Both the position numbers and the translations under genes were made by a program. From NCBI GenBank assembly GCA_963741905.1, contig CAVUJZ010000017.1, positions 273,626-337,625 of the forward strand: a stretch of DNA of 64,000 bases, given 5' to 3'. Positions 6,101 to 57,333 of the stretch are shown in pieces. Each line of letters starts with the position of its first letter. Position 1 is the first letter of the stretch. Source of the stretch: an uncultured Acidobacteriota bacterium. GTDB lineage: Bacteria; Acidobacteriota; Thermoanaerobaculia; Gp7-AA8; CAVUJZ01. Under the pieces are notes generated by a model that did not search any database, was not told the origin of the DNA, and was given only the letters and a program-made list of their open reading frames with translations.

Positions 6101-6165
6101 GGGTCAGGTCTTCGATCTTCGGTCAAGGCCGCCGAAGATCGAAGATGTGGCCCCGGTTTTGGGCA
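6101..6165. repeat. Inverted REP pair forming a hairpin, plus a conserved GGTTTTGGGC tail
   Basis: GGGTCAGGTCTTCGATCTTCGGTCAAGG (6101-6128) is followed by its inverted partner CCGCCGAAGATCGAAGATGTGGCCCC (6129-6154). CTTCGATCTTCGG pairs with CCGAAGATCGAAG. The same 65-nt module recurs at 7236-7300. Confidence 0.8.
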
Positions 6166-6698: not shown

Positions 6699-7190
6699 AT
6701 GGCGTACGTCTACACGGCGGACGACGAGCGGCTGTGGGAGCTGAACGTCACCACCAGCCGGTCGCAGTACACCCTGCGGGATCTCGACCACAAGCCGCTG
6801 CGGGTGATCGAGGAGGACGGCTCGTCGGGGACGGCGGTCTGGAGCTGGAAGGAGGACTGGGTCTACCGCGGGGGGACGCTGATGACGGCGGTCAAGCCGA
6901 CGGGTCGGATCCAGTTCCACGTCGACCACCTGGGGACGCCGCGCCTCGTCACGAACTCCACCCGCGGGACGGTCGCCCTGCACCAGTACTACCCCTTCGG
7001 CGAGGAGTCGACCTCCCCGACGCAGGACACCGAGGAGCTGAAGTTCACCGGCCACGAACGGGACACCGACTTTTCCGGAGCGCGCGACTACCTGGACTAC
7101 ATGCATGCCCGGTACTACAGCCCGATGATGGGGAGGTTCCTGAGCGTGGATCCGGGCGGCATGGACCCGAGTACGCCGCAGTCAGACGCG
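6699..7190 (+). pseudogene. Orphan RHS core fragment no. 2, truncated by REP sequences
   Basis: About 425 nt are near-identical to 3800-4222. It reads in frame through HVDHLGTPRLVTN..YYPFGEE..FTGHERD..YMHARYYSPMMGRFLSVDP and then runs into the REP copies at 7198. No toxin tip is present. Confidence 0.7.
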
Positions 7191-7197
7191 CAATACT

Positions 7198-7290
7198 GGG
7201 GTCACATCTTCGATCTTTGGTCAACGCGCAATACTGGGGTCACATCTTCGATCTTTGGTCAAGGCCGCCGAAGTTCGAAGATGTGGCCCC
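7198..7290. repeat. REP cluster left of the RAYT gene: two direct copies plus one inverted copy
   Basis: GGGGTCACATCTTCGATCTTTGGTCAA occurs at 7198 and 7236 (38-nt period). The inverted copy CCGCCGAAGTTCGAAGATGTGGCCCC lies at 7265-7290. Confidence 0.8.
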
Positions 7291-7512
7291 GGTTTTGGGC
7301 GGGAGGAGGGCGTGAGCCAGGTCGAGCATCGCGCGAAGTCGCGCGATCTGGTCTGCACGGAGTTCGCGAGTGGCGCCAGGAAGGGCGGAAATGCCGACTG
7401 GCGGTGGCGACCACCGGCTGGATCGGGTGAATCAGGCGGAGCTCGGCCGGGCCTGCTCAGCCGAGAAGGTGCGAATTCAACCTTGAGATGTCTGTCGGGG
7501 GGCTCCGCGCCG

Positions 7513-8504: not shown

Positions 8505-8621
8505 AACAAGCCGAGGATCCCTCGGAAAATCCGATCTGTCCAATCATTGCCGTAATCAGGCGCTTTTTCTCCTCGGAATGGAAACTCGCTCTACGAGGAG
8601 TAGATCCGGGTGGCGAAGCGA

Positions 8622-8679
8622 ATCTGACGATCGACGACCTGCCCCCGCAGCCGAATCCGACGATCGAAGACCTGACCCC
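8622..8679. repeat. REP doublet right of the RAYT gene, inverted relative to the left cluster
   Basis: ATCTGACGATCGACGACCTGCCCCC (8622-8646) and ATCCGACGATCGAAGACCTGACCCC (8655-8679) have a 33-nt period. The reverse complement GGGGTCAGGTCTTCGATCGTCGGAT matches the REP at 6101. Confidence 0.75.
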
Positions 8680-8800
8680 GCAGCCGGGGAGACGGGAGAC
8701 TCCGCCAGAGCTCCGTCTCCTCAGCCTGGTGATTTCATCCTCATCGCCACCCGGACGTGCAACGTCCGGCCACTCGTGGCAGAACTTTCGTCCAGACCTC

Positions 8801-10612
8801 CTACCGCCGATGCTCTCCCCAGCAGAGTTGCCAGAGATTCAACTCCCCGGAACCTCCGGTACCTGACCCGTCGACGGCGATTTCCAGGAGATTGTGATCC
8901 GACTGAAGACTCCTGGGCACCTCGTAGATCACCTGGTGACCTCCCCGCCCGAGCTCTTCCCGCTCCAGTCGCTGGCCGTTCCACTGAATCTCGACCGTCG
9001 ATCGTGCTTCGAGCGTGAAGCCAAGCTTCAACCAGCCGCTGTCGGCCCCGGGTGATGGCGGGAGCATCAGCGCGGATCTGCCGCCCATCGTTCGGGAGGG
9101 GCGCTCCGGATCCGTCTCCGTGTCAGGCGCGCTCCATCCGGCGCGGAAGTCCGCACGCTCGCGCCAGGGGACGATGGAGATGTGGTAGTAGTGCGAGCGG
9201 GTGATCTTCCGCAGAGGATACTCCTGGCGATCGAACCGCACGACGGCATTCGGATCGGTGCCCTCACCCACCAGCAGAGTCCCCGGCTCGACCGGTGCGA
9301 GGGGGACGGCGTCGATGTCCAGGACCTGCGTGAGGGGCACGTCGCGGAGCGCATACTCAGCGAATGGCTTCATTCCGAACGCCACCGCCAGGTGGGGCAT
9401 CACCACCGAGGGCTGACTCTCGAGCCACTCCACGGCTGCCCAGGAGGGGGAGTCGCTGGTGCGGACGAGAGCCAGCGAGGGGAGCGTCCAGACGAGAAAC
9501 GCCGCGCTGATGGCCACCGCGCCGGACCAGAAGATGGCCGGCTTCCAGCGCGAACCTCGCGCCGTCCATCCGCTGACCCGCTCCAGACCGTCCATGGCGA
9601 TCATCGCGAACATCGGGCTGTAGCCGATCGCGAACCGGGTCAGGCTGAACCGGTCGAGCAGAAGAATGGCCATCAGCAGAAACGGTCCGAACGTGGATGC
9701 CACCAGGAAGACGGCAAGTCGCCTTTTGCGAAAGGAGGCCACGATCGAGACGAGCACGAGCAGCGAGACCAGATGGCCCAGCGTGAAGAACGAGTAGTGC
9801 CGGAAGGCGAACTCGCCGAACACGGTCAACAGCGGGGGCCGGTCCGGACTGAGAAAGGAATCCTGAGTGAGGATGTATTGCCGGTGCGCGCTCAGCGTGG
9901 CGAGATAGCCCTGGACCGACGCGGATGCGAGCGCAGCGCCGGTGTAGATTCCGATCAGGACCAGGCCGCCGGCGACCATCCCGAAGAGCGGTGTTTTCAC
10001 CTCCCGCCGGCGCAACCACGCGGCGGAGGCGAGCAGCGCGGGGATCATTCCGATCAGCAGATTCTGAGGGCGCACCCCGGACGCCAGGGCGAGAACCACC
10101 GCCCCGAGGATCAGCGAGCTTCTGCTCCGGCAGCCCCGGAGAAGCAACGCCACCGCCAGACAGACCAGCATCAGCGACAAGACGTCACTGAACGCGGTTC
10201 CACCAAAGAACCAGATGTTCGGGAAGAAGCAGCAGAGGAGGCTTCCGCCCGCCGCCACCGGAAAGGAAAACCGCATCTCCCGGGCCATGAAGAGCAAGGC
10301 GGGGAAGAGAAGCAGCGAGGCGATCAGGACCACCGTCTGAAGGGCGACGAAATCGCTCGCGACGACCGGGCGGATCAGATGGGCGAGGAAGATGTAGAGA
10401 GGAAATCCCGGCGGATGGGGGTGGTGAAGGGTCACGTCGAACTGGCGCAATCCCAGTGCGAACAGAATCTCGTCCCACTCCCAGGGAGTGCGGGCGAGTG
10501 CGAGAAACCGGCTGGCCGCCACCGCGATCGCCAGGATCGGTATGGCCACACGCGCGTGGCGTGACCACGGCTCAGGCGGAGTGCTCAGCTCATCGAGAAG
10601 GCGTCGGATCAT
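8801..10612 (-). CDS. GT-C fold membrane glycosyltransferase (ArnT/PMT/GT39-like)
   Basis: 603 aa with about 12 predicted TM helices. The first loop carries WEWDEILF..HHPHPPGFPLY, and there is a soluble C-terminal domain. The ATG overlaps the upstream stop codon (ATGA at 10609-10612). Confidence 0.55.
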   Translation of the reverse strand: MIRRLLDELSTPPEPWSRHARVAIPILAIAVAASRFLALARTPWEWDEILFALGLRQFDVTLHHPHPPGFPLYIFLAHLIRPVVASDFVALQTVVLIASLLLFPALLFMAREMRFSFPVAAGGSLLCCFFPNIWFFGGTAFSDVLSLMLVCLAVALLLRGCRSRSSLILGAVVLALASGVRPQNLLIGMIPALLASAAWLRRREVKTPLFGMVAGGLVLIGIYTGAALASASVQGYLATLSAHRQYILTQDSFLSPDRPPLLTVFGEFAFRHYSFFTLGHLVSLLVLVSIVASFRKRRLAVFLVASTFGPFLLMAILLLDRFSLTRFAIGYSPMFAMIAMDGLERVSGWTARGSRWKPAIFWSGAVAISAAFLVWTLPSLALVRTSDSPSWAAVEWLESQPSVVMPHLAVAFGMKPFAEYALRDVPLTQVLDIDAVPLAPVEPGTLLVGEGTDPNAVVRFDRQEYPLRKITRSHYYHISIVPWRERADFRAGWSAPDTETDPERPSRTMGGRSALMLPPSPGADSGWLKLGFTLEARSTVEIQWNGQRLEREELGRGGHQVIYEVPRSLQSDHNLLEIAVDGSGTGGSGELNLWQLCWGEHRR

Positions 10613-12183
10613 GCCGAAGCCCGGAAGCGCCGGAACGCTCTGGCGAATTTCATCATCGCGGGAAGATTGGAGATTTTCACCTTCCCGGTCATCACGGCGA
10701 ACTGCGGGTCCTTCTCACCGCTCTCGACCCCGAGGTAGGTCTTCTCATTCGTGGTGACGATGCAATCCGGATCCCCGTGGAGTCCCTCCCGGACGGTGCA
10801 GGATCCGCCGTCGATCGTGACGGTCCATTCGGGAGGATCCGCATCGGAGATCCGGAAGTGGAAGCAGGCGCGCCAGCCCTCGGTTCGGTCCGCTCGGAGC
10901 CGTCGCGGAAGGGAGCGAAACAGCGCGGGGAGGGTCAGGGGTCCGTCTGATTGCTCTTCGTCGGAACCCCCCGCACCCGGATCGTCGGCCGCCGTTGCAC
11001 TCTCCCCGGAAGGGTGCTTCTCGAAGCGCACTCCGTCGATGTCGATCTTTGCGATGATCTCGCGCATGATCTCGCTGGTTCCGGCGACGATCGTCGACAC
11101 CCGTGCGTCCCGATAGAACCGCGAGATGACGTACTCCTCGGTGTAGCCGAAGCCGCCGAAGAACTGCAGGCATTCGTCGGCCACCCTGGTGTTCAGCTCG
11201 GTGGCGAGAAGCTTGGCCATCGCCGACTCCCGCACCGCCTGATGCCCGTTCTGGTGGAGCCAGGCCGCGTGATAGACCAGTTGGCGCACCGATTCGAGCT
11301 CCGCGAACAGATCGGCGAGACGGTGCCGAAGCGCCTGGAACCGGTTGATCGGACGGCCGAACGCCTGCCGCTGACTCATGTAGTCGAGGGTTTCCTGCAG
11401 GATCAGATCCGACGCACCGATCGAGGTGGCCGCGGCCACGAGACGCTCGAGCGCGAAGGTCTCCATGATCGCGTAGAAGCCCTCGTTTCTCAGGCCCACC
11501 AGATGATCTGCCGGCACCCGTACGCCGTCGAAAGTAATCTCTGCCGTATCGGAGCAATGCCATCCCATCTTGCGGATCGGTTTCGCGGCCACTCCCGGGG
11601 TTCCGGCGTCGACGACGATCAGACTGATTCCTCCCGCGCCGGCATCCGGATCGGTCTTGCAGGCGACGACATTGAAGTCTCCATACACCCCGTTGGTGAT
11701 CCAGGTCTTGGCTCCGTCGATGATCCACTCGCCGCCCTCGAGAACCGCGCGGGTGCGAATGGCGGCGACATCCGATCCCGCATCGGGCTCGGAGATGGAG
11801 ATGGACCCCACCTTCTCGCCCGAGATCGACGGGACGAGATAACGCAGTTTCAGATCCTCCGATCCGCGATGGAAGATCGCACCGGTGGCGATGAACTGCT
11901 GCACCGTGACCGCCGCGGCGAAGCCGCCCATCCGGGAGCGGGCCAGCTCCTCCAGAAAGGCGATGGCGAAAAAGAGATCCGCGCCCGATCCGCCGTATGC
12001 CTCAGGGAAGGTGATCCCGAGGAAGCCGCGCTCGCCCATCCGCCTCCAGATGTGGGGTGGAATGCGTTGGTCCCGTTCCCACTCCGCGGCGTAGGGGGCG
12101 ACTTCCGTCTCCATCAGCTCACGCACGCTGCGGCGGAACATCTCGTGTTCTTCGGTAAAGTAGGCGGAGGGCATCGCTCGCAA
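10609..12183 (-). CDS. Acyl-CoA dehydrogenase fused to a C-terminal SCP2 sterol-carrier-like domain
   Basis: 524 aa. The ACAD hallmark layout is present (FTEEHEMFR.., ..GSDVAAIRTRA.., ..YRDARVSTIVAGTSEIMREIIA). After a linker comes FHFRISDADPPEWTVTIDGGSCTV..DPQFAVMTGKVKISNLPAMMKF, which looks like SCP2. Confidence 0.85.
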   Translation of the reverse strand: MRAMPSAYFTEEHEMFRRSVRELMETEVAPYAAEWERDQRIPPHIWRRMGERGFLGITFPEAYGGSGADLFFAIAFLEELARSRMGGFAAAVTVQQFIATGAIFHRGSEDLKLRYLVPSISGEKVGSISISEPDAGSDVAAIRTRAVLEGGEWIIDGAKTWITNGVYGDFNVVACKTDPDAGAGGISLIVVDAGTPGVAAKPIRKMGWHCSDTAEITFDGVRVPADHLVGLRNEGFYAIMETFALERLVAAATSIGASDLILQETLDYMSQRQAFGRPINRFQALRHRLADLFAELESVRQLVYHAAWLHQNGHQAVRESAMAKLLATELNTRVADECLQFFGGFGYTEEYVISRFYRDARVSTIVAGTSEIMREIIAKIDIDGVRFEKHPSGESATAADDPGAGGSDEEQSDGPLTLPALFRSLPRRLRADRTEGWRACFHFRISDADPPEWTVTIDGGSCTVREGLHGDPDCIVTTNEKTYLGVESGEKDPQFAVMTGKVKISNLPAMMKFARAFRRFRASA

Positions 12184-12248
12184 TGATAGCTCGCGATGAG
12201 AACGGTGTGAGAGCTCCCGTCGGCCACGAAGCCCATGCGGGTGCCGCT

Positions 12249-13640
12249 CTCGTCATCCTGAGCGCCAGTACACGTGTCGAAGCCCATGCCGTGGGTCGCC
12301 CTCGTCATCCTGAGCGCCGGCAAACGTGTCGAAGCCCATGCGGTGGGTCGCGAAGGATCTTGCCTTCGTGAGGGTCGAGAGCGCGGCACACGCGAAACGC
12401 CGGTACTACCCGCTGGGCTCGATTCGCCACCAGCGCGGATTCGTCTCGACCGTTGCGAGAGGCAAGATCCTTCGCGGGACGGTTCTCGGCTTCGACACCA
12501 GCACGGGCGCTCAGGATGACCGAGTGGGGGACGTTCCCGCAAGGTTGTCGCCCTCGTCATCCTGAGCGCCGGCAAACGTGTCGAAGCCGATGCGGTGGGT
12601 CGCGAAGGATCTTGCCTTCGTGAGGGTCGAGAGCGCGGCACACGCGAAACGCCGGTACTACCCGCTGCGCTCGATTCGCGCGGATTCGTCTCGACCGTTG
12701 CGAGAGGCAAGATCCTTCGCGGGACGGTTCTCGGCTTCGACACCAGCGCGGGCGCTCAGGATGACCGGGTGGGGGTCCGTTGCCGTAAGGTTGTCGCCCT
12801 CGTCATCCTGAGCGCCGGCGAACGTGTCGAAGCCGATGCTGTGGGTCGCGAAGGATCTTGCCTTCGTGAGGGTCGAGAGCGCGAAACGCGACACCGCTGC
12901 GCTCGATTCGCCCATCAGCGCGGATTCGTCTCGACCGTTGCGAGAGGCAAGATCCTTCGCGGGACGGTTCGCGGCTTCGACACCAGCGCGGGCGCTCAGG
13001 ATGACGGAGTGGGGGACGTTGCCGTAAGGTTGTCGCCCTCGTCATCCTGAGCGCCAGTGAACGCGTCGAAGCCGATGCGGGTGCCCCCTCGTCATCCTGA
13101 GCGCCGGCAAGCGTGTCGAAGCCGATGCTGTGGGTCGCCCTCGTCATCCTGAGCGCCGGCGAACGCGTCGAAGCCGATGCTGTGGGTCGCGAAGGATCTT
13201 GCCTTCGTGAGGGTCGAGAGCGCGGCACACGCGAAACGCCGGTACTACCCGCTGCGCTCGATTCGCCCTCCGCGCGGATTCGTCTCGACCATTGCGAGAG
13301 GCAAGATCCTTCGCGGGACGGTTCGCGGCTTCGACACCAGCACGGGCGCTCAGGATGACCGGGTGGGGGACGTTGCCGCAAGGTTGTCGCCCTCGTCATC
13401 CTGAGCGCCAGTGAACGTGTCGAAGCCGATGCCGTGGGTCGCGAAGGATCTTGCCTTCGTCAGGGTCGAGATTCCTCCACGCGAAACGCCGGTACCACCC
13501 GCTGCGCTCGATTCGCCACCAGCGCGGATTCGTCTCGACCGTTGCGAGAGGCAAGATCCTTCGCGGGACGGTTCTCGGCTTCGACCCCAGCACTGGCGCT
13601 CAGGATGACCGAGTGGGCGACATTGCCGCGAGGTCGCCCG
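12249..13640. repeat. Tandem array of about 250-bp units, each containing a long (about 215-nt) imperfect palindrome
   Basis: Full units lie at 12301-12520, 12553-12765, 12799-13005, 13140-13359 and 13393-13609. Each is bounded by CTCGTCATCCTGAGCGCC and GGCGCTCAGGATGAC, with mirrored internal blocks (TGTCGAAGCCGA/TCGGCTTCGACA and CGCGAAGGATCTTGCC/GGCAAGATCCTTCGCG). Left-arm-only copies of 52 nt lie at 12249, 13038 and 13088. A conserved linker of about 32 nt (..GTGGGGGACGTTGCCGCAAGGTTGTCGCC) joins the units. Confidence 0.9.
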
Positions 13641-13728
13641 CAACACGTCGCTGGTCGACAGCCGCGTGGGCGAGGGGAGCGCGTTTCATGTTGCCCTTCC
13701 CGCCCTGGACGCCGGGCGCGACTGAACT

Positions 13729-15867
13729 TCAGGCGTAGAATCGCTCTCCGTTCCCCGCAATCTCGACCAGCAGAGGGGCCGGCTCGAATCGCGCCCCCAG
13801 CCTCGAAGCCAGCTCCCTCATCCGGCGCACCACCGACTCCGGGCCGGCGGCATCCACCGTGTGGAACGGACCTCCACGGAATGGCGGGAATCCCAGTCCG
13901 AGAATGGCCCCGACGTCCCCGTCCCGAGCCGAAGAGAGGATTCCCTCCTGAAGACACCAGACCGCCTCGTTGATCATCAACAGGGACAGCCTGTCGGCCA
14001 TCTCACGCGAGTCGATCGCTTTTCCATCGGCGCCGCCGAAGAACCGGGAAACGTCCGGGTTGATCGGTCTCGATCCGTGGCGGTTTTCCGGTTCATAGAG
14101 GAAGAACCCCTTCCCGTTCTTGCGGCCTCCATAGCCGGCCTCGACCATCCTCGGGAGAATGTCCGATGGCGCAAGCCCGCGCGCGGCGAAGGCCTGACCG
14201 AGATCGCGTGAGACATGGGTCGCCACGTCGAGGCCCACCTCATCGAGCAGAGTCACCGGCCCCACGGGGAATCCGTACTGCCTGAGTGCTGCATCCAGCG
14301 CATCGATTTCCGCTCCTTCCCCGAGCAGGACGATCGCCTCGTTCATGAATGGTGCGAGGATCCGGGTGGTGTAGAAGCCGGGGCCGTCGCGGACCACGAT
14401 GACCGTCTTTCCCTGCGCCGTTCCGAAGGCGTGTGCGGTCGCGATCGCTCGATGGGCGGTCTTCTCTGTCCGGACGATTTCCAGGAGCGGCATCTTCGGA
14501 ACCGGTGAGAAGTAGTGCATGCCCAGAACGCGCTCTGGGTGGAGCGCTCCGGCAGCGATGTCCGCGATGGGAATCGCGGAGGTATTCGACGCGAAAACCG
14601 CATCGGAGGTGAGCACCGTCTCGGCGTCGGCGAGGACCTGTCGTTTGAGATCGCGGTTCTCGAAGACCGCCTCGATGACCAGATCGCATTCTTCCAGATC
14701 TCGAGCGCTCGTGCTGGTCTTGAGCTTTCTCTTTCCTCCGCCGGGGAGCTCGGCACCGACGGACCCGGAGCGAACGCGCCGCTCGAGGTTGTGGGCAATG
14801 CGCTCGGTTGCGCGGTGGAGAGTCTCCTCCGAAATATCCTGGAGAATCACGGCGGCGAGATCGATCGAGATCGAGGCGATCCCCTCTCCCATCAGTCCCG
14901 CTCCGATCACCCCCAGCCGGGCGATCGCCCGAGGGGGGGCATCGACGGGTGGGCGTTTGAGATCCGTCGTCGCCTTGAAGAGCCAGATCAGATGCCGCGA
15001 TCCGGCAGACGTGACCAGGGTTCCGAAGAGCTCGATCTCCTTCTGCCGCCCCGCCTCGAAGCCGTCGCGAAGACCGGTCTCCACGGCGTCCAGAAGCGCG
15101 TGTGGGGCCCGATAGTGGCTGCCGGTCTTTTTCCTGACTGCCTCCCGTGCGCGGCGCAGGACGAATCCGCGGACCGGAGCGAAGTTGGTCAGGCGCTGGA
15201 GGAAGGAACGCGATCTGCGATTGGAAAGGGGTCGTCCCCGTAGGAGCCTCGAACAGGCGCGGTCGACCACCTCGGGTAAAGAGTCCGGTGTGGCGATCTC
15301 GTCGATCAGACCGTACTCCAGAGCCTTCCGCGCTCGGATCCGTTTTCCGCTGAGCATGATCGGGAGAGCCCGAGCCAGCCCGATCAGGCGGGGAAGCCGC
15401 TGTGTTCCGCCTCCCGCCGGGATCAGGCCGATCATCGCTTCCGGAAGGCCCAGGACAGTCGCGGGGTGTTCGGTGGCGATGCGATAGTGGCAGGCGAGCG
15501 CGATCTCCAGTCCTCCCCCGAGCGCGGCACCGTGGATGGCGGCGATCACCGGCTTCCGGCTGCCGGCGACCCGGTCGAGCAGCCGATGCGCTTCCCGGAC
15601 GAAGGCCGAGGCCTCCCGTGAGGAGCTCATCGAGAGGATCTCGTCGAGATCGGCGCCGGCCAGGAAGTTGTCGGTCTTCGCGCTCTCGAGGACCACGACG
15701 GCGATCGATTCGTCACTCTCGATTCGATCGAGCAGCTCCCCGAACCCGCGGAAGAAGGCGCGGGAGATCACGTTGACTTTCTCTCCGGGTGTGTCGAAAA
15801 CGACATGAAGAACACGGTCCTGCTGCCGGATCCGGAATGGGAGGTCATCTCTGGTGTCGGCGTCCAC
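13729..15867 (-). CDS. Multifunctional fatty-acid oxidation enzyme (enoyl-CoA hydratase plus 3-hydroxyacyl-CoA dehydrogenase, FadB/FadJ type)
   Basis: 712 aa. The N-terminal crotonase fold carries FLAGADL and AAIHGAALGGGLEIALAC. The central part has the Rossmann motif LGVIGAGLMGEGIA. A 3HCDH C-terminal domain follows. Confidence 0.9.
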   Translation of the reverse strand: MDADTRDDLPFRIRQQDRVLHVVFDTPGEKVNVISRAFFRGFGELLDRIESDESIAVVVLESAKTDNFLAGADLDEILSMSSSREASAFVREAHRLLDRVAGSRKPVIAAIHGAALGGGLEIALACHYRIATEHPATVLGLPEAMIGLIPAGGGTQRLPRLIGLARALPIMLSGKRIRARKALEYGLIDEIATPDSLPEVVDRACSRLLRGRPLSNRRSRSFLQRLTNFAPVRGFVLRRAREAVRKKTGSHYRAPHALLDAVETGLRDGFEAGRQKEIELFGTLVTSAGSRHLIWLFKATTDLKRPPVDAPPRAIARLGVIGAGLMGEGIASISIDLAAVILQDISEETLHRATERIAHNLERRVRSGSVGAELPGGGKRKLKTSTSARDLEECDLVIEAVFENRDLKRQVLADAETVLTSDAVFASNTSAIPIADIAAGALHPERVLGMHYFSPVPKMPLLEIVRTEKTAHRAIATAHAFGTAQGKTVIVVRDGPGFYTTRILAPFMNEAIVLLGEGAEIDALDAALRQYGFPVGPVTLLDEVGLDVATHVSRDLGQAFAARGLAPSDILPRMVEAGYGGRKNGKGFFLYEPENRHGSRPINPDVSRFFGGADGKAIDSREMADRLSLLMINEAVWCLQEGILSSARDGDVGAILGLGFPPFRGGPFHTVDAAGPESVVRRMRELASRLGARFEPAPLLVEIAGNGERFYA

Positions 15868-16244: not shown

Positions 16245-16252
16245 ACCACGCC

Positions 16253-16366
16253 CTCGTCATCCTGAGCCGTTGAAGGCCCCCCGTGTGGGACGGGTCTCCC
16301 GACCCGTCCCGGGTATCGGACGTCTCGTCCGACCCCCATGGGCGCCATTCAACGGCTCAGGATGAC
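16253..16366. repeat. Solo 114-bp palindromic element sharing the GTCATCCTGAGC terminal inverted repeat with the 12.2-13.6 kb array
   Basis: CTCGTCATCCTGAGCCGTTGAA and TTCAACGGCTCAGGATGAC form perfect 19-bp terminal inverted repeats. Inner hairpins are GGGACGGGTC-tccc-GACCCGTCCC and CGGACG-tct-CGTCCG. The element starts 9 nt after the stop of the glutaredoxin-like gene. Confidence 0.8.
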
Positions 16367-16454
16367 CGGGCAGGTGCACCCACGGCAGGATTGATCTCCG
16401 GCCCGGCAGCGTGGATAATCTGCTGCAAATTCAATCTGCAGGAAGGGCCAATCC

Positions 16455-20752: not shown

Positions 20753-23700
20753 CTATGGTTTCTGGTGGAGCTCCTGAAGGCTCAGAAGTGTGTGGACTCC
20801 CTCCTGCATCGCCCGGATTCCCTCGACCGCGGCGGTGGCCGCCGAGATCGTGGTGATGCAGGGGATGGAACGCTGCAGGGCGATCCGCCGGATGTAGGTG
20901 TCGTCGTACCAGGCGAACCGGCCCAGAGGTGTATTGATCACCAGATCGATCTCGTCGTTGATCATCCGGTCGGTGATGTTCGGCCGTCCTTCGTGAACCT
21001 TGAGGACCAGCTCCGCCTCGACGCCGTGATCTTCCAGGTACTGACGCGTCCCGGTGGTGGCCACCAGATGAAAGCCGAGCTCGTGAAGCTCCTTCGCCAG
21101 CGGAACGATTGATCTCTTGTCTTCCTGGTTGACGGAGATGAATGCGGTTCCGGTGCGAGGAAGAGCCTGGCCCGCGCCAAGAAGCGCCTTGACGTAGGCT
21201 TCGCCGAAGGAAGACGAACTGCCCATCACTTCGCCGGTCGACTTCATCTCCGGGCCGAGAACGGTGTCTTCGCGCGGGAACCGGGAGAAGGGGAAGACCG
21301 GAGCCTTGACGAAGTAATGATCAAGCTTCGGTTCGGCGGTCAGCCCGATCTGGTCGAGCGTCTCGCCAGCCATGACCCGCGCCGCGATCTTCGCAAAGGG
21401 AACGCCGGTCGCCTTCGAGACGTACGGAACTGTTCGGGATGCGCGGGGATTGACCTCGAGCACATAGATCTCACCCTGATGGATGGCGAACTGGATGTTC
21501 ATCAGTCCGACCACCTTCAGCAGCTTCGCGAGCTCGACCGTCCTTCGCCGGATCCGATCGAGATCCCGTGGTGAGAGCGCCCAGGCAGGAACCACCGTGG
21601 TGGAATCGCCGGAGTGGATTCCGGCCTCCTCGATGTGCTGCATGATGCCACCGATCACCACCCGGTTGCCGTCGGAGAGCGCATCGACGTCGATCTCGAA
21701 TGCATTCTCGAGAAACCGGTCGAGCAGAATGGGATGCTCGGGCGAGGCTTCCGCGGCCTCACGGGTGTAGCGCTCCAGAGCGGATTCGTCGTAGACCACC
21801 GCCATGGCCCGGCCTCCGAGAACGTAGGAGGGACGGACCACCAGCGGATATCCGATCCGCCCGGCGATCTCCAGCGCCTGCTCTTCCGAGCTTGCACTTC
21901 CATTCTCCGGAACCGGGATCCCCGCCTTCTCCAGCAGGTCCCCGAACCGCTCCCGGTCTTCGGCGAGGTCGATCGATTCGGTGGAAGTCCCCCAGAGCGG
22001 GACCCCGGCGGCAGCGAGGGCTCCGGCCAGTTTGAGGGGGGTCTGCCCTCCGAACTGGAGGATCACCCCGGCGGGTTTTTCCAGATCGATGACCTCCAGA
22101 ACGTCCTCGAGGGTGAGGGGCTCGAAGTAGAGCCGATCCGAGGTGTCGTAGTCGGTCGAGACCGTCTCGGGATTGCAGTTGATCATGATCGTTTCGAGGC
22201 CCTGCTCGCGGAGCGCGAACGAAGCATGCACGCAACAGGAGTCGAACTCGATCCCCTGGCCGATTCGATTCGGTCCGGAGCCGAGAATCACCACCTTGCG
22301 GCGATCGGTGGGATTCGATTCGTTCTCCGTTTCCCAGGTCGAATAGAGATAAGGAGTGCTCGCCTCGAACTCGGCCGCGCAGGTGTCGACGCGCTTGTAG
22401 ACGGGGCGCAGACCGAGGCGATGCCGCAGTTCCCGCACCGCGGTTTCACTCTGTCCCGTGAGTCGCGCCATCTGCCGGTCGGAGAATCCCAGCCGCTTCC
22501 ATCGCCTCAGGTCCCCGCGAAGGTGATCGTCCCCGGAGGCGAAGCGCTCGGCAGCGGCGACGATCTCCCGCTCCGCCGCGATGATCCGCTCCATCTGCTG
22601 GAGAAACCAGGGATCGATCCAGCTGGTCTGATAGATCTCGTCGCGGCTGATGCCGGCTCGCATCGCATCCGCCACGGCGTAGATCCGGGTGGGTGTCGCG
22701 GTGCGCATCAGGTCCACCAGACGCTGGCGATCGGCGCCCGCAAACTGGCTCTGCAGCCCGTCGACGCCGGTCTCGAGAGAGCGGAGCCCCTTCTGCAGCG
22801 CCTCGTTGAAGGTTCGTCCGATTGCCATGACCTCGCCGACCGATTGCATCGACAGGCCGAGGTTGGGCGGGGTGTTGGGGAACTTCTCGAATGCGAAGCG
22901 GGGGATCTTGACCACCACGTAGTCGATGACCGGCTCGAACGACGCGGGAGTCTTCCGGGTGATGTCGTTGGGGATCTCGTCGAGGGTGTAGCCGACGGCG
23001 AGTTTCGCGGCGAATTTCGCGATGGGGAACCCGGTGGCCTTGGATGCGAGGGCCGAGGATCGGGAGACCCGCGGATTCATCTCGATGACGACCCGCTGGC
23101 CATCTTTCGGATTGACGGCGAACTGGATGTTCGAGCCGCCGGTCTCGACTCCGATGGCGCGGATGATCGTCTTGGCGTCATCCCGCATCGCCTGGTACTC
23201 CTCGTTCGACAGGGTCATCTGAGGAGCCACGGTGATCGAGTCGCCGGTGTGAACCCCCATCGGATCGAAGTTCTCGATCGAGCAGACGATGATCACGTTG
23301 TCGGCATGATCCCGCATCACCTCCAGCTCGAACTCCTTCCAACCCAGAACCGACTCTTCGATCAGCACGCTGTGGACCGGGGAAAGCTGCAGGCCGCGGC
23401 TGACGATCTCCCGGAATTCTTCGACGTTGTAGGCGATCCCGCCGCCCGTGCCGCCGAGGGTGAAGGAGGGGCGGATGACGATGGGATAACCGATGTCGAT
23501 CGCCAGGGCGAGCGCCTCGTCGAGGGTGGTGGCGTAGCCCGAGCGCGGGACGGCGATGCCGGCTCGGGTCATCGCCTCCTTGAACAACTGCCGGTCTTCG
23601 GCGGTCTTGATCGCTTCGTAGCTCGCGCCGATCAGCTCGACCCCGTGCTCGGCGAGCACCCCGGCCTCGTGCAGCCCGATGGCGAGGTTCATTCCGGTCT

Positions 23701-23977
23701 GCCCGCCGACGGTGGGGAGGATGGCGTCCGGTTTCTCGCGCGCGATGATCTCCGCCACGACCGGAACCGTCAGTGGCTCAATGTAGGTGCGATCCGCGAA
23801 TTCCGGATCGGTCATGATCGTGGCGGGATTGGAATTGACCAGAATGATCCGGTAGCCCTCGTCCCGGAGAGCCTTGCAGGCCTGCGTACCCGAGTAGTCG
23901 AATTCACAGGCTTGTCCGATGACGATGGGGCCGGATCCGATGACCAGGATCGAGGAGATATCGGTGCGCTTTGGCAT
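20753..23977 (-). CDS. carB: Carbamoyl-phosphate synthase large subunit
   Basis: 1074 aa from [42 protein letters not shown]. It has duplicated ATP-grasp halves and an MGS-like C-terminus. The longer ORF in the track only adds translation of the heptamer repeat. Confidence 0.95.
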
Positions 23978-24004
23978 CGAAGACAGGATGGTACCGCATT
24001 CGGA

Positions 24005-24225
24005 GGCGAGAGGCGAGAGGCGAGAGGTGAGAGGTGAGAGGTGAGAGGTGAGAGGTGAGAGGTGAGAGGTGAGAGGTGGAGAGGTGAGAGGTGAGAGGTG
24101 AGAGGTGGAGAGGTGAGAGGTGAGAGGTGAGAGGTGAGAGGTGAGAGGTGGAGAGGTGAGACGGTGAGAGGTGAGAGGTGAGACGGTGAGAGGTGAGAGG
24201 TGAGAGGTGAGACGGTGACGGTGGG
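24005..24225. repeat. Heptanucleotide tandem repeat (GAGAGGT/GAGAGGC), about 31 units with interspersed 8-mers
   Basis: The tract reads (CGAGAGG)x3, (TGAGAGG)x7, TG, GAGAGG, (TGAGAGG)x3, TG, GAGAGG, (TGAGAGG)x5, TG, GAGAGG, TGAGACGG and so on. It ends 28 nt upstream of the carB ATG. On the carB sense strand it reads (ACCTCTC)n. Confidence 0.95.
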
Positions 24226-24475
24226 AGGCACCTTTGGTGGGGGTTGGGCCTCTGGCCCGATCCCCGGGCGGCCTCCGGCCCCCGAGGGCGCGCTCCACAG
24301 GCGACCCGGGTTCACTCTGGGCGTCCCACTCTTATCCGAAGTGAGACGGTGAGCGAATCGAGACGGTGGTCATCGTTTCGAGCGGCGGGGCGACCCGGGC
24401 AAGTGAGGCATCTTGTCCGATCCCGGTTTGGACCTCCGGTCTCCGGTCACCCTATCTGCGGTATGCTCTCGGCCG

Positions 24476-32458: not shown

Positions 32459-32654
32459 CAGAGGAAGGAACGATCAGAGTTTCGTGAGTCAGGAAGCAAG
32501 GGTGAAGGTCCGGGGAAGGGATGGGTGTGTGTGCCCCCGGTGAAGCTCGGGAGGGGTGGAGCGTGGAGTGTGGGTGTAAGTGGATGGTTTCCCGTGGCGT
32601 ACAAAAAGGCAGATCTTCACCCTTGTTTGCTGACTTACCGGTGGTCCCGAGAGC

Positions 32655-53400: not shown

Positions 53401-54568
53401 CGATGCGTACTGGACCGACCAGCCGTCGAGGAGGAATTCGGTCGAGCCCGGGTTGTAGAGCTCGATGAAGTCGTGATCCAGGGGAGCGCCGGAGTTTCCG
53501 CCGCCGCCGTAAACCTGGCTGATGGTCAGCGCCGGCGGCGTGATCGTGGCGGTCAGGGTGATCGAAGTCGATCCGTTCCGGGCCTGGGCGTCGGTGATCG
53601 AGATCGGAATCGTCTTGACGCCCTGGGGTGTGGAGTTGTCGACCGTGGCGTTGAAGGAGAAGGTGTTGTCGCCGGAGGTGACGTCGCCATTCGTGCCGTT
53701 ATCGTAGAAGGGCTGCGAGGCGCTTCCGCCGATGGAGGAGAGATCGCCGGTTACCGCGAGTCCGGTGGAAGTAGGACTCGCGCCCGGAATCACGGTGACG
53801 GTGAGCAGCGTGGTGTTTCCGATGATTACGGTGGACGGGTTTGCAGAGCCGGTTCCGCTCGGGTTCGATGCCTCGGTGATCGAAATGTCGTCGATGCCCA
53901 CCCATTCGTCATTGCCGGCAGCGTTGGTGGTGATGACGCGGATCTGAACCGCCGACTGGTTGTCCGCGGCCGCCGGCAGGATCACACTTCACCGGGGTGA
54001 CCAGAGTGGCGAGATTCGGTCCGGTTGTGGCGTCGGCGATGTAGCCGCCAGCGAGATTGGTGAAGCTTCCACTGGTGCCGACTCGATACTGAAGCGCAAC
54101 CTGCTGGTTCGTATCGTCACCGCCACCGTCGATGTCCCGGACGTTGTACTGAACCCGGATGTTCGACTTGCCGGTCGTGTCGATGGTGATCAGAAGAAAC
54201 GGCGCATCGGCCGTTCCCGATCCCTGCAGAGCCACCACCGGATCGGTGATTCCGTCGAATTCGGTGACCCCTCCCGTGGCGTAGGTATTCGGATCGCTGC
54301 GATTCGCGTTGACGTCGACCGTGGTCTCGTCGGCGGTGATCGTCTGGGGATCCGTGCCGGTGGAGGCGGTCAGTCCGTCACCGCGATACCCGGTGATCCC
54401 CGCGACGCCGCTCCAGTCGTCGGTCGCGGTGATCAGACTGCCGTCGCTCCAGTCCTGGGTGAACGGTATCGTCTGTGGTGTGTTGTCGGCGCGAAGAGAG
54501 AAAAGCGGAAAGAGGATTGTCAGCGAAAGGAAAAGGAAAACGGGACGAAGGCATTTCGAAACGAGCAT
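50419..54568 (-). CDS. ExeM/NucH/Xds-like extracellular nuclease (lamin-tail domain, OB-like, endonuclease/exonuclease/phosphatase) with a C-terminal IPTL-CTERM-like sorting signal; one frameshift near 53985
   Basis: The ATG at 54568 is preceded by AAGGAG and followed by the signal peptide MLVSKCLRPVFLFLSLTILFPLFSLRA. There are two Ig-like repeats (..TGL.VTGDL.SIGG.ASQ.FYD.G.NGDV..GD.TFSF). The LTD segment reads ISQVYGGGGNSGAPLDHDFIELYNPGSTEF. IHGIQGAGSLSPEDGNTVTTEGVVTAV follows. The EEP domain has FTVSSFNLERFFD, ILGIVEIEN, VLVGDFNAYQF and LDHVLLSP. The C-terminus is DIPAVSPLGLALLALILALGGMVAIKR. Confidence 0.8.
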
Positions 54569-54780
54569 GCAGCGAGACTCCTTGCTGAGAATTGACCCCC
54601 GCAACACCCGCCACACCCTCGAGAACGCACCCTTCAGTTTCGGAAGCCGAGCGTCCGGCATTATATGCCCCGAAGGTGCAATTCTGGTGTGAAGTTTTTC
54701 AGGAGCCAGCGTTCGACCGCTCGAGGAGCGGGGAAAGGCCATTGCTGTGAAGTGGACCAGACCTCCTCAGGCCTGTGAAG

Positions 54781-55703
54781 TGGGCCGGGCCTTCCCAGGC
54801 CCGGCCCCGCGTAAAGCGTGCAGGTTACGCAGCCCGGGCTACGTGCCGAGATGTTGGACCCGCCTGAAAGCCCGCGCGACGGTCGCCGCTTCGTCGCCCG
54901 TGCCGGTCGAGAGCCAAGGTCGTCGCGGGACCGAGCGAAGGAACACTCGGTCCACTTTGTCGAGTTGCCCAGGTGGGCCGGGCCTTCCCAGGCCCGGCCC
55001 CGCGTAAAGCATGCAGGTTACGCAGCGCGGGCTACGTGCCGAGATGTTGGACCCGCCGGGAACCCGGCGCGACGGTCGCCGCTGCGTCGCCCGGGCCGGT
55101 CGAGAGCCAAGGGCGTCGCGGGACCGAGCGTAGGAACACTCGGTCCACTTTGTCGAGTTGCCCAGGTGGGCCGGGCCTTCCCAGGCCCGGCTCCGCGTAA
55201 AGCATGCAGGTTACGCAGCCCGGGCTACGTGCCGAGATGTTGGGCCCGCCGGGAACCCGGCGCGACGGTCGCCGCTTCGTCGCCCGTGTCCGTCGAGAGC
55301 CAAGGGCGTCGCGGGACCGAGCGAAGGAACACTCGGTCCACTTTGTCGAGTTGCCCGCGTAAAGCATGCAGGTTGCGCAGCGCGGGCTACCTCCCGAGAT
55401 GTTGGACCCGCCTGAAAGCCCGCACGACGGTCGCCGCTTCGTCGCCCGTGTCCGTCGAGAGCCAAGGTCGTCGCGGGACCGAGCGTAGGAACACTCGGTC
55501 CACTTTGTCGAGTTGCCCAGGTGGGCCGGGCCTTCCAGGCCCGGCCCCGCGTAAAGCGTGCAGGTTACGCAGCGCGGGCTACGTGCCGAGATGTTGGACC
55601 CGCCGGAAAGCCGGCGCGACGGTCGCCGCTTCGTCGCCCGGGCCGGTCGAGAGCCAAGGTCGTCGCGGGACCGAGCGAAGGAACACTCGGTCCACTTTGT
55701 CGG
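54781..55703. repeat. Tandem array of five units of about 190 bp, rich in GC hairpins
   Basis: Units lie at 54781-54973, 54974-55166, 55167-55356, 55357-55521 (this one lacks the first 30-nt hairpin) and 55522-55703. Each contains GGGCCGGGCC-ttccca-GGCCCGGCCC, GCGTAA-N10-TTACGC, GCGACG-N10-CGTCGC and GGACCGA-N12-TCGGTCC. The array ends 7 nt from the corrected guaA stop. Confidence 0.9.
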
Positions 55704-55710
55704 GCAGGAT

Positions 55711-57333
55711 CATTCCCACTCGATGGTGCTGGAGGCTTCGACGAGATGTCGTAGACCACCCGGTTGATGCCCCGAACCTCGTTGACGATCCGCCGCGAGA
55801 TCTGATCCAGCACCTCGTGGGGAAAGCGGTACCAGTCCGCCGTCATGAAGTCGCTGGTGGTCACCGCACGGATCGCCGCTACATTCTCGTAGGTTCGCTC
55901 GTCGCCCATCACTCCGACACTTCGTACCGGGAGAAGAACGGTGAGCGCCTGGGAGATCTCCGCATACAGTCCGGCCTTCCGGATCTCCTCGATCAGAATG
56001 GCGTCCGCTTCCTGCAGGATCTCCACCCGCTCCGGGGTGACTTCCCCAGGATCCGCACGGCGAGCCCGGGTCCCGGGAACGGGTGCCGCCAGACGAACTC
56101 CTCGTCCAGCCCCAGTTCCAGTCCCAGTCTCCGCACCTCGTCCTTGAACAGCTCCCGCAAGGGCTCGATCAGCGCCAGTCCCATCTTCTCCGGCAGGCCC
56201 CCGACGTTGTGGTGCGTCTTGATCACCGCGGAGGGACCCTTGACCGAGACCGACTCGATCACGTCGGGGTAGAGGGTTCCCTGGACCAGAAACTTCACGT
56301 CCGGGATCTTCTTCGCCTCTTCCTCGAAGACGCCGATGAACTCGTGACCGATCTTCCGCCGCTTCAGTTCCGGGTCGGAGACGCCTGCGAGCTCTCGATA
56401 GAACCGTTCCCGCGCATCAACGGCAACAATGTTCAACCCGAGACCGTCGCTGAGGCGAGAGACCACCTGGATCGCCTCGTTCTTCCGCAGCACGCCATTG
56501 TCGACGAATACCGCGGTGAGCTGCTTTCCGATCGCCTCGCTGACCAGCACCGCGGCGACCGACGAATCCACGCCACCACTGACCGCGGCGATCACGTGGC
56601 TGTCACCGACCGTCTCCCGGATCTCCTCGACCTTCCGCCGCCGGAAATCCTCCAGATTCCATTCGCCACGGCATCCGCAGATCTCGAACAGGAAGTTTCT
56701 CAGGATCTGCGACCCATACTCGGTGTGGGTCACCTCCGGATGGAACTGGATGCCCCAGATTCTTCTCTCCGGGTTTTCGAAGGCGGTGAAGGGGGCGTTG
56801 GGCGAGGTGGCGATCCGCCCGAAACCGTCGGGGGCAGCGAGAATCCGATCCCCGTGGCTGGCCCAGACTTTCTGGCGTGCCGGAGTGCCGCGGAACAGCA
56901 CGCTGTCTCCCTCGGTAGTGATCTCCGCCCGGCCGTACTCCCGCTCCTCGGCGGCCTGAACGTTTCCGTCCAGGAAATAGGTGGTGAGCTGCATCCCGTA
57001 GCAGATGCCGAGAATGGGAGCGCCGAGATCGAAGTAGGCGCGGTCGCACCAGGGGGCATCCTCGCCGTACACCGACTGCGGGCCCCCGGAGAGGATGATG
57101 CCGCGGGGCGCCATCGCCCGCGCATCGGCGATCGGAAAGTCGAAAGGATGGATCTCGCAGTAAACGTTCTGCTCGCGAATTCTACGGGCGATGAGCTGGG
57201 TGTACTGCGAACCGAAATCGAGAACGAGAATGGATTCGTCGCGGCTGGTCATCTCGGGGGCGAATTGTACTTCGGATGGCGTTGAGGCGCAGCGCCCCGG
57301 TCCGTGGCATTCCTTATGCTCTCGATTGCGCAT
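55711..57333 (-). CDS. guaA: GMP synthase (glutamine-hydrolysing); two 1-nt deletions near 56033 and 55730
   Basis: GATase [20 protein letters not shown], the ATP-PPase motif [13 protein letters not shown], and ..[14 protein letters not shown] then (frame change in a G-run) [30 protein letters not shown] then (frame change) ATIEWE-stop. Confidence 0.9.

Follow-up and report, generated by a model that had tools for sequence, protein, structure and literature searches.

The array at positions 12224-13645 of the window (the whole 64-kb stretch of DNA that was analysed) is, with a probability of about 70%, a tandem cluster of a REP-doublet (REPIN-like) element, an arrangement of the kind also seen in the BIMEs of E. 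coli and in ordered REPIN clusters from Pseudomonas. It comprises five full units, three left-arm-only modules and one truncated module. The whole doublet, including a 35-nt linker, is present five times alongside the extra left-arm copies, and its left arm and inverted right arm enclose a palindromic spacer, giving a hairpin of more than 200 nt. Among the three alternatives offered in the initial annotation, MITE/BIME-like amplification is the one favoured by the REP-type arms, their alternating orientation, the two conserved spacers, the copied linker and the similar clusters found elsewhere.

Anatomy of the array

At its outer edge the array starts with the truncated 3' part of a left-arm module (12224-12242; CGAAGCCCATGCGGGTGCCGCTCTC, the end of the 52-nt module), and the 52-nt periodicity detected by TRF begins at 12227. 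Left-arm-only module A (12243-12294, 52 nt) consists of the head GTCATCCTGAGCG and the insert, without the GCGAAGGATC half. It is followed by full unit U1 (12295-12546, 252 nt), made up of left arm, palindromic spacer/apex, right arm and linker, by U2 (12547-12792, 246 nt), which has an 8-nt apex deletion and forms a long hairpin on both strands, and by U3 (12793-13031, 239 nt), with a 14-nt apex deletion. Modules B (13032-13081, 50 nt) and C (13082-13133, 52 nt) come next, then U4 (13134-13385, 252 nt) and the edge unit U5 (13386 to about 13645, about 255 nt), which terminates within the linker. These coordinates bear out the layout first described, with five full and three left-arm-only units between the two flanking genes. 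The left-arm-only units had all been given as 52 nt long, which holds for A and C but not for B, and the additional truncated module at about 12224-12242 had been missed.

Full units are 239-255 nt long and 90-97% identical to one another, U5 being the most divergent (90-92% identity to the others), and private indels and 3-10% substitutions distinguish them. The apex does vary between units, as initially annotated, but not freely: the differences are the deletions in U2 and U3 and one short substituted patch in U5. As in a BIME, the orientation flips from each arm to the next and two spacers are conserved, the linker and a spacer/apex that puts about 105 nt between inner blocks; a right arm, the linker and the next left arm together make a further hairpin. 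The head GTCATCCTGAGCGCC has 13 exact copies (8 on the plus and 5 on the minus strand, against 0.34 expected), every one inside the array, and the inner block CGCGAAGGATCTTGCC has 10 (0.11 expected). Read directly from the sequence, the edges of the modules coincide with a direct repeat, GTCGC, copies of which lie in the 5' flank and ahead of GAAGGATC. There is a higher-order duplication with a period of 354, in which the block of module C and U4 matches that of module A and U1 at 94% identity. The linker was copied along with the unit, in line with the earlier suggestion that its conservation points to amplification of whole units.

Elsewhere in the 64-kb window the repeat is represented by one solo hairpin element (16249-16372), which carries two further copies of the head motif beside the 13 in the array, all of them extragenic. 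It has array-type termini (CGCCCTC-GTCATCCTGAGC ... GCTCAGGATGAC-CGGG) and a different interior, has a glutaredoxin-like gene on one side and a cytochrome c gene on the other, is 2.6 kb from the array, and folds at -96 and -103 kcal/mol (z -10.4 and -9.5). No direct repeats flanking the solo element or the array ends were seen by eye. A palindrome family unrelated to this repeat shows a similar left-arm duplication at 7181-7262.

Flanking genes

Upstream of the array lies a FadB/FadJ-type enoyl-CoA hydratase/3-hydroxyacyl-CoA dehydrogenase gene (13729-15867, minus strand; Pfam ECH_1, 3HCDH_N and 3HCDH), and downstream an acyl-CoA dehydrogenase (ACAD) gene fused to a C-terminal SCP2 domain (10609-12183, minus strand); for both, the Pfam domains agree with the identities first proposed. 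The ACAD gene starts at a TTG (12183), with an alternative in-frame ATG at 12174, and there is a 4-nt overlap between its stop and the start of the following ORF (8801-10612, minus strand). Between the array and this gene is a weak sigma-70-like promoter match (12183-12211, minus strand), with only 9 of 12 consensus matches. The array was initially placed inside a beta-oxidation operon; from two co-oriented genes 1.55 kb apart, we infer only that it may lie in one. The closest FadB homologues do not exceed 60% identity and belong to MAGs of Thermoanaerobaculia and of other Acidobacteriota. In the three distant homologues examined (57-59% identity) the fadB-ACAD pair is not kept; the head motif is absent from the examined FadB-homologue loci, which, with no fadB-ACAD synteny, yielded no empty site.

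Folding and coding potential

Every full unit folds into a hairpin of more than 200 nt on either strand (z about -9.5), with stems that hold runs of about 23 and 32 near-perfect pairs. For U2, the fold reaches -151.8 kcal/mol on the plus strand (z -9.3) and -142.0 kcal/mol on the minus strand (z -9.7), and none of 200 shuffles was as stable, so that the long hairpin first described for single units stands on both strands. Covariation among the five units was uninformative for this long hairpin (one double change, a level matched by 283 of 500 shuffles), and arm substitutions among them mostly disrupt pairs. Isolated arms fold no better than shuffles (left arm z -0.6 and +0.4; right arm z +1.7 and +0.5). 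That the arms still behave as REP hairpins after their expansion is a candidate property, which these isolated-arm folds do not back.

Rfam cmscan, a check proposed in the initial annotation, found two tRNAs only in the whole window; the array matches no family at the gathering threshold, and at E<=10 its region gives sub-threshold miRNA hairpin models only. Neither a terminator-like site in the array nor, by consensus promoter scan, a sigma-70-like site within the units was detected. ORFs crossing the array reach 198 aa (minus strand) and 151 aa (plus strand), longer than the "only short" ORFs noted before. Pfam matches none of them, and a search of 5.8 billion proteins turned up no homologue of the 198-aa ORF; on these grounds a coding reading was rejected and the non-coding assignment stands. 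CRISPR-like and integron attC readings were rejected on anatomy, the array having no unique spacers and no cassettes.

A widespread 25-nt hairpin family

The array arm consists of both halves of a 25-nt hairpin motif, GTC-ATCCT-GA-GC-GNA-GC-GA-AGGAT-C, parted at the triloop by a 33-nt insert. Around this insert the window arms retain the ATCCT/AGGAT stem, the GA/GA mismatches and the GCG/CGC pairs. Exact matches to the unsplit 25-mer number at least 120 in genomes from many phyla, with a further 88 in viral contigs. Searching with the pattern GTCATCCTGAGCG-N(0-30)-GCGAAGGATC returned at least 120 stretches; among the matches listed, these come from Chloroflexota, Acidobacteriota, Patescibacteria, Bacillota, Bacteroidota, Cyanobacteria, Planctomycetota, Pseudomonadota and others, and 109 of the gaps between the two halves measure 2 nt and 25 measure 3 nt. 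The GTCATCCTGAGCG head had been described as resembling a short repeat scattered in many soil-bacterial genomes, which this genome search confirms and extends to many phyla. In eight Acidobacteriota and related matches, the triloop is enlarged by 19 nt at the position where the array arms have their insert.

The canonical motif has five Watson-Crick pairs, two G.A mismatches and two further Watson-Crick pairs, a GNA or GNNA loop of 3-4 nt (of 146 copies, 109 have 3 nt) and a C-T-N tail. Its stem types include ATCCT, ATTCT and ATGCT. Canonical copies vary in the base that precedes GTC, and the window left arms read CTC-GTC-ATCCT...AGGAT. The motif is a real hairpin, because compensatory changes occur at six of its seven stem pairs (29 cells; 34 unconstrained partner arms), a level reached by none of 500 shuffles, with at most 3 cells in slid controls. 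Whereas the stems covary, no variation is seen in the GTC tag, the tandem G.A pairs or the GNA loop. Its usual form is an inverted doublet with the two copies 10-90 nt apart, and "head-only" stutters stand 5' of a complete hairpin at 10 or more loci. Rfam cmscan of 18 loci with canonical doublets yielded tRNAs only.

Doublets also form tandem clusters with conserved spacer and linker in the isolate genome of Pedobacter sp. AK013 (locus L124, 140-nt units), in Aminivibrio (L093) and in a viral contig (L251, 87-nt units). The composite unit itself was found nowhere else and has no ORF-level homologue: its left arm, GTCATCCTGAGCGCC-N9-GTCGAAGCC, has no match in 185,579 species genomes and 241 million metagenome records, and one array unit had no match in plasmids by distant BLAST. 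Literature matches to the repeat sequence strings were irrelevant primers only.

Association with GIY-YIG nuclease genes

Small GIY-YIG nuclease genes lie within inverted hairpin pairs at 34 of 80 independently sampled loci, and because of this nesting the data suggest a RAYT-independent, REPtron-like system. Pedobacter sp. AK013 and Hymenobacter glaciei are two isolates with such a nested gene. Beyond the hairpin, about 30 nt are common to short doublets and a gene-carrying element (L089 compared with L031 and L126). By regex motif search of the six-frame translation the window holds no GIY-YIG gene, and a motif search found none adjoining the viral-contig copies. We found no report of a GIY-YIG/REP link in the literature.

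Tentatively, the 25-nt hairpin could be what a pan-bacterial "REPtron", independent of RAYT, recognises, with the stand-alone GIY-YIG nuclease (about 95 aa) as its enzyme. Hairpin-gene-inverted hairpin copies (about 400 nt) might then be autonomous, and short doublets, stutters and tandem clusters their non-autonomous progeny and by-products of nuclease-triggered repair. If this possible scheme were true, it would identify the enzyme, so far missing, that mobilises CGTC/TGTC-type REPs and explain the exact 25-nt conservation from Patescibacteria to Cyanobacteria.

Origin of the array and alternative explanations

The array is probably selfish or neutral in origin. One doublet, a putative non-autonomous relative of the elements with a small GIY-YIG gene between two hairpins, would have landed between fadB and the ACAD gene. 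Its copies may then have multiplied on the spot, through replication slippage or through unequal recombination among the direct repeats within it, since each 52-nt module has GTCGC at both ends and the duplications take in entire blocks of module plus unit. If the array is co-transcribed with its neighbours, the mRNA would contain five consecutive long stems with no U-tract. Effects of E. coli REPs on upstream mRNA stability and read-through are documented, and REP325 combines the roles of terminator and stabiliser inside an operon (bioRxiv 10.64898/2026.03.23.713779). By analogy with these REPs, which are the source of any RNA role suggested here, the stems would shield the upstream fadB message from 3' exonucleases, reduce read-through into the downstream gene and offer substrates to RNase III.

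Such effects could also be the reason for the array, if the five stems had been retained as a selected cis-acting RNA module that uncouples the two cistrons, whether by processing with RNase III, by protecting the 3' end of the fadB mRNA or by attenuating read-through into the dehydrogenase gene. Same-pathway, co-oriented genes with no terminator-like site between them, the long near-perfect pair runs of the stems and the dual role of REP325 are consistent with this. It is nevertheless rather unlikely, as the units show no covariation and their arm substitutions mostly break pairs, the gene pair is not conserved in the examined relatives, the repeat type occurs in unrelated contexts elsewhere, and a promoter-like site precedes the downstream gene. 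Five side-by-side insertions of a mobile doublet, with its own sequence or flank as the target, in place of duplication, would recall the disordered REPIN clusters thought to come from insertion beside existing REPINs (PMC3116915), and the family does appear mobile, being dispersed across phyla and present in viral contigs. We regard repeated insertion as improbable, however: the linker and flanks were copied with the unit, module-plus-unit blocks were duplicated whole with a period of 354, a 5-nt direct repeat marks the module junctions, and the unrelated palindrome in the window has the same arm stutter.

An array of independent structured ncRNAs or template RNAs, such as sRNA genes or the ncRNA arrays associated with reverse transcriptases, would fit units that are strongly structured on both strands, and hairpin ncRNA arrays are known in other systems (bioRxiv 10.64898/2026.09.22.753630). 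The arms, however, are plainly derived from a REP family, spurious miRNA hairpin models are all that Rfam returns even at E<=10, the consensus scan gave no sigma-70-like site within units, and the scanned immediately flanking ORFs are metabolic or lack a Pfam match, which makes this reading very unlikely. Equally slight is the chance that the assembly over-expanded a shorter repeat, although repeats are error-prone in assemblies. Every unit has private differences (the 8- and 14-nt deletions, the substituted apex patch, the 3-10% substitutions), which argue for an old, real array; moreover, the host contig is 546,864 bp long and comparable arrays occur in isolate genomes, such as that of Pedobacter sp. 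AK013.

Significance

As a tandem cluster of REP doublets the array is a fairly ordinary feature, and it matters little for the biology of the locus unless it tunes the fadB/ACAD expression ratio. It indicates that tandem clusters of the REPIN/BIME type extend beyond the GTAG/RAYT systems of Proteobacteria and that their units can reach 250 nt. The larger point is the hairpin family, with its base-exact conservation across many phyla and viral contigs and its nested GIY-YIG genes. If functional, the GIY-YIG link would define a new class of nuclease-associated repeat system, and the spread of "transposase-less" CGTC-type REPs, a long-open question, would become directly testable. The repeat is also relevant to annotation because it generates many spurious small ORFs.

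Comparison with known repeat systems

REPs in general are short imperfect palindromes whose structure is conserved among copies, which the covariation of the canonical 25-mer demonstrates for this family. The array further shows the hallmarks of ordered REPIN clusters (inverted REPs that form one hairpin, in tandem doublets with their flanks) and of BIMEs (alternating REPs with two alternating conserved linkers). Tandem REPIN clusters that include the flanks have been published for Pseudomonas fluorescens SBW25 (Bertels and Rainey 2011, PMC3116915); like the array, they consist of inverted palindrome doublets in near-identical tandem copies, sometimes with an extra single REP, and the largest comprises four REPINs and one REP over more than 700 bp. 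The SBW25 REPs are of the GTAG type and linked to RAYT (IS200/IS605-like Y1) transposases, whereas the array arms begin with (C/G)GTC-AT in place of a 5' GTAG tetranucleotide, and their GTC-tagged hairpin has tandem G.A pairs and a GNA triloop. The array differs also in the 33-nt loop insert of its arms, its 250-nt unit and its total length of 1.4 kb, and the gene found within related doublets encodes a GIY-YIG nuclease rather than a RAYT.

According to two published accounts (PMC2817692, PMC3333891), E. coli REPs and BIMEs resemble the array as extragenic palindromes of alternating orientation, with two alternating conserved linkers, in tandem. They often lie between co-oriented genes, as the array does, but they belong to a different sequence family, and the array units are about five times longer. 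E. coli REPs and BIMEs are bound by IHF, gyrase and Pol I.

The CGTC-tagged REP superfamily includes dRS3 of Neisseria, and as far as the account of Di Nocera et al. (2013, PMC3733652) goes, no dedicated transposase is known for it. According to the same account, its members carry an unpaired CGTC, TGTC or CCTC tag at one end, begin their stem with A-T and then T-A, have about nine stem positions, are mostly dimers and occur in several phyla; the window left arms (CGTC-AT...) share the tag and the stem start, and the other points are likewise common to the superfamily and the present hairpin family. The paired 8-9-bp stem, 4-5-nt loop and CCA tail given there are found neither in the canonical motif, with its 3-4-nt GNA/GNNA loop, two G.A mismatches and C-T-N tail, nor in the window arms, whose loop is about 27 nt. 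The comparison covers the text descriptions of the four families of the superfamily in that account, and identity with any one of them is at most a possibility. MITEs, finally, are likewise short and non-coding with terminal inverted repeats, but no target-site duplication was seen by eye and no DDE-type transposase partner was seen, and the termini of the element are hairpins with internal covariation, a hallmark of REPs rather than of MITEs.

Layout of the tandem array

TRF and a repeat finder reported periods of 52, 250 and 354 nt in the array, and together with direct reading of the sequence they bore out the initial annotation's layout of five full units and three left-arm-only modules. 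By sequence reading, the full units lie at 12295–12546 (U1), 12547–12792 (U2), 12793–13031 (U3), 13134–13385 (U4) and 13386 to about 13645 (U5), and the modules at 12243–12294 (A), 13032–13081 (B) and 13082–13133 (C), with an additional truncated module at about 12224–12242. Pairwise identity among units is 90–97%, with a mean column identity of 93%. All 13 copies of the head GTCATCCTGAGCGCC and all 10 copies of the inner block CGCGAAGGATCTTGCC fall within the array, against shuffle expectations of 0.34 and 0.11, respectively. The same annotation had called the array non-coding, which held, with no sign of coding, but its statement that only short ORFs cross the array did not, as these reach up to 198 aa. 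The apex, described as variable, does differ between units, but most of the difference comes from two deletions and a single substituted patch.

The long hairpin proposed for each unit was upheld on both strands by folding U2, which pairs positions 2–234 at −151.8 kcal/mol on the plus strand (z −9.3) and reaches −142.0 kcal/mol on the minus strand (z −9.7). By direct reading, the left arm and the reverse-complemented right arm have three identical blocks in common; the stretches separating these blocks bear no relation to one another (GGCAAACG vs CGCGCTGG; GATGCGGTGGGT vs GAGAACCGTCC), so the arms are not simple inverted copies. The repeat finder reported a second pairing, formed by the right arm, linker and next left arm together. 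Double changes among the five units involve one pair only, arm substitutions are mostly pair-breaking, and nothing among these units shows selection on the long hairpin.

The pentamer GTCGC stands at both the start and the end of the 52-nt modules, occurring in the 5' flank (GTCGC-CCTC-GTCATCC) and again where the arm's 3' half is about to begin (GG-GTCGC-GAAGGATC), a junction of the kind that slippage between short direct repeats would be expected to leave. Larger blocks were duplicated too, since module A plus U1 and module C plus U4 are 94% identical (repeat finder) and TRF gives the 354-nt period.

A 25-nt hairpin family underlies the arms

The array clusters tandem copies of one doublet, and the arms of this doublet derive from a GTC-tagged family of 25-nt hairpins. 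The composite left arm had no match elsewhere in scans of genome and metagenome contigs. Its head, GTCATCCTGAGCG, and the start of its inner block, GCGAAGGATC, resemble two halves of a single motif, and the pattern GTCATCCTGAGCG-N(0-30)-GCGAAGGATC occurred in at least 120 stretches of genome contigs and in 88 stretches of viral contigs (IMG/VR). Phyla among the matches listed include Chloroflexota, Acidobacteriota (including Thermoanaerobaculia), Patescibacteria, Omnitrophota, Bacillota, Bacteroidota, Cyanobacteria, Planctomycetota, Verrucomicrobiota, Gemmatimonadota, Nitrospirota, Synergistota and Pseudomonadota. Among these listed matches, the gap was 2–3 nt in 134 of 146 occurrences, giving the 25-mer GTC-ATCCT-GA-GC-GNA-GC-GA-AGGAT-C, with N being C in 48, A in 34, T in 17 and G in 8. 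The exact 25-mer, GTCATCCTGAGCG-NA-GCGAAGGATC, is common to MAGs and isolates of more than 12 phyla (retrieved loci L008–L127; viral loci L209–L297), a breadth unusual among REP-type repeats.

The 25-mer folds into a 5-bp stem, two G·A/A·G mismatches, a 2-bp tip and a GNA triloop; d(GCGNAGC) is a classic mini-hairpin of unusual stability. Its usual arrangement is an inverted doublet in which a spacer of 10–90 nt separates the two copies and the GTC tags lie on the outside. Partner arms of these doublets, collected without any pairing constraint, often carry two changes relative to the query arm that are complementary to each other within the arm. Stem variants included ATTCT/AGAAT (15 partner arms), ATGCT/AGCAT (five), ATTCC/GGAAT (three), GTCCT/AGGAC (two) and ACTCT/AGAGT (one). 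Across 34 distinct partner arms, compensatory changes occupied 29 cells at six of the seven pairs, which none of 500 shuffles matched; slid controls gave at most 3 cells. Because six of seven pairs are compensated, the conserved structure is the small, REP-like hairpin within each arm. Stems covary in the family, and the GTC tag, GA/GA mismatches and GNA loop are fixed. Acidobacteriota and related MAGs have triloop expansions of 19 nt, and other hairpins have a lengthened GC tip with the GNA loop kept. The 33-nt insert of the array's arms also sits at the triloop position and is the largest expansion seen.

The outer flank of the array's right arm (13595–13645, 12760–12775) reads, as reverse complement, CCCCCACCCG|GTCATCC, close to the flank CCCCACCCT|GTCATCC of a Chloroflexota subfamily (L015, L029, L031, L053, L089, L126). 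This sequence likeness hints either that the shared terminus is longer or that phyla have exchanged sequence by horizontal transfer.

Stutters and tandem clusters

Head-only stutters (GTCATCCTGAGC plus 6–12 nt, period 17–24 nt, two to six direct copies) precede complete hairpins at no fewer than ten loci, for example L037 270–723, L113 5072–5171, L054 6381–6574 and L184 about 1427–1450. Some elements have four to six stutter heads at each end, and in L037 the stutters are symmetrical, at both ends of the element. They may originate from slippage at the hairpin or be iterated protein-binding sites. The array's 52-nt modules are this stutter phenomenon on a larger scale. Elsewhere, in Pedobacter sp. 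AK013 (L124; 140-nt units, at least five copies), in Aminivibrio (L093; two clusters) and in the viral contig L251 (87-nt units, five copies), whole doublets form tandem clusters whose spacer and linker are conserved.

The window holds a second palindromic family, GGGGTCACATCTTCGATCTTTGG / CCGAAGTTCGAAGATGTGGCCCC, unrelated to the array (6101–6153, 7181–7301, 8619–8686). At 7181–7262 its 38-nt left arm and flank are tandemly duplicated ahead of a single right arm, mirroring the array's left-arm-only modules. That an unrelated palindrome also duplicates its left arm argues for general slippage at hairpins that is not sequence-specific.

GIY-YIG nuclease genes inside hairpin doublets

In 3 of the 120 genome stretches among the matches listed, a GIY-YIG ORF (about 95 aa, Pfam PF01541) lay 1–174 nt from the hairpin. 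Stand-alone genes of this type sit within inverted hairpin pairs at L061 4130–4433, L089 3313–3710 and L124 4871–5216. We examined an independent sample of 80 metagenome loci (L128–L207), picked by GIY-YIG protein similarity only and ignoring the repeat, and counted hairpins by a structural definition. Hairpin density near the gene (within 200 nt upstream or 250 nt downstream) was 1.97 per kb vs 0.25 per kb elsewhere in the same loci, an 8-fold difference, and 0.015 per kb in the reversed sequences. At least one nearby hairpin was present in 34 of the 80 loci; upstream hairpins were in plus orientation in 24/35 and downstream hairpins in minus orientation in 25/32. Given this enrichment and orientation bias, the gene typically lies inside an inverted doublet. 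The Chloroflexota flank subfamily includes one such element, L089, whose whole gene-carrying unit is 398 nt and whose ends match short doublets of other Chloroflexota MAGs over 57–65 nt, about 30 nt past the hairpin.

These data fit a nuclease that mobilises the hairpins, and they also fit a nuclease gene that is itself a homing element targeting them. A motif search found no GIY-YIG gene in the window, and our literature search turned up no publication connecting GIY-YIG genes to REPs. The array by itself is of modest interest; a hairpin family common to many phyla and associated with GIY-YIG genes is the part worth following.

Genomic context

The array lies between a FadB/J-type gene (13729–15867) and a gene for an acyl-CoA dehydrogenase-SCP2 fusion (10609–12183), both on the minus strand. 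The stop of the dehydrogenase gene and the start of the next ORF overlap by 4 nt. No terminator-like sites were found within the array, and a single weak promoter-like site, a consensus match only (9/12 matches), lies between it and the dehydrogenase gene. One database protein, on a 546,864-bp NCBI/ENA contig, is identical to FadB. Identity drops to 60% or less in the next best homologues, which come from MAGs of Thermoanaerobaculia and other Acidobacteriota, so that, the identical protein aside, the data searched contain no close relatives of the lineage. In the relatives with FadB homologues that were examined, both the fadB–ACAD pair and the head motif are absent. A solo hairpin element at 16249–16372, between glutaredoxin-like and cytochrome c genes, has termini as in the array (CGCCCTC-GTCATCCTGAGC ... 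GCTCAGGATGAC-CGGG) and a different interior.

Other repeats occur in the window. A second long tandem array at 54780–55702 (about 4.8 copies of roughly 193-nt units, range 162–193; 92–95% matches) has the palindrome GGGCCGGGCCTTCCCAGGCCCGGCCC opening each unit, an unexceptional unit fold (z −1.3) and flanking ORFs at 53909–54742(−) and 55993–57333(−), the latter GATase/NAD-synthase-like. The heptamer GAGGTGA occurs about 30 times at 24003–24218, at the 5' end of the CarB ORF (20753–24298, minus strand); since the CPSase domains begin only at residue 114, the repeat is probably part of the leader or located shortly before the real start. An isolated inverted repeat at 32484–32638 has 27-nt arms, 85% complementary and spaced 101 nt apart.

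Comparison with known repeat systems

The array matched no Rfam family. Membership of the GTAG/RAYT system was considered and rejected, as the array lacks GTAG and no evidence points to a RAYT. According to Di Nocera et al. (PMC3733652), CGTC-tagged REPs have no dedicated transposase; going by the paper's verbal description, the array resembles that superfamily in tag, AT-starting stem, size and dimer habit, and differs in loop length, G·A mismatches and tail.

In E. coli, REP325 inside yjdMN causes partial termination and protects upstream mRNA (bioRxiv 10.64898/2026.03.23.713779). By analogy, if the array is co-transcribed it could partially terminate transcription and protect upstream mRNA, and its 23- and 32-bp stems would likely be RNase III-sensitive. 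One doublet probably inserted and was then amplified by slippage or unequal exchange, and the array is probably maintained as selfish or neutral sequence.

As in BIMEs, the arms alternate in orientation, there are two conserved spacers, flanks are copied with the unit and extra single arms occur; by this analogy, the array behaves as a REPIN/BIME cluster would. The feature is real and its kind is known, but it is a variant in its long unit, its expanded-loop arms and its non-GTAG family.
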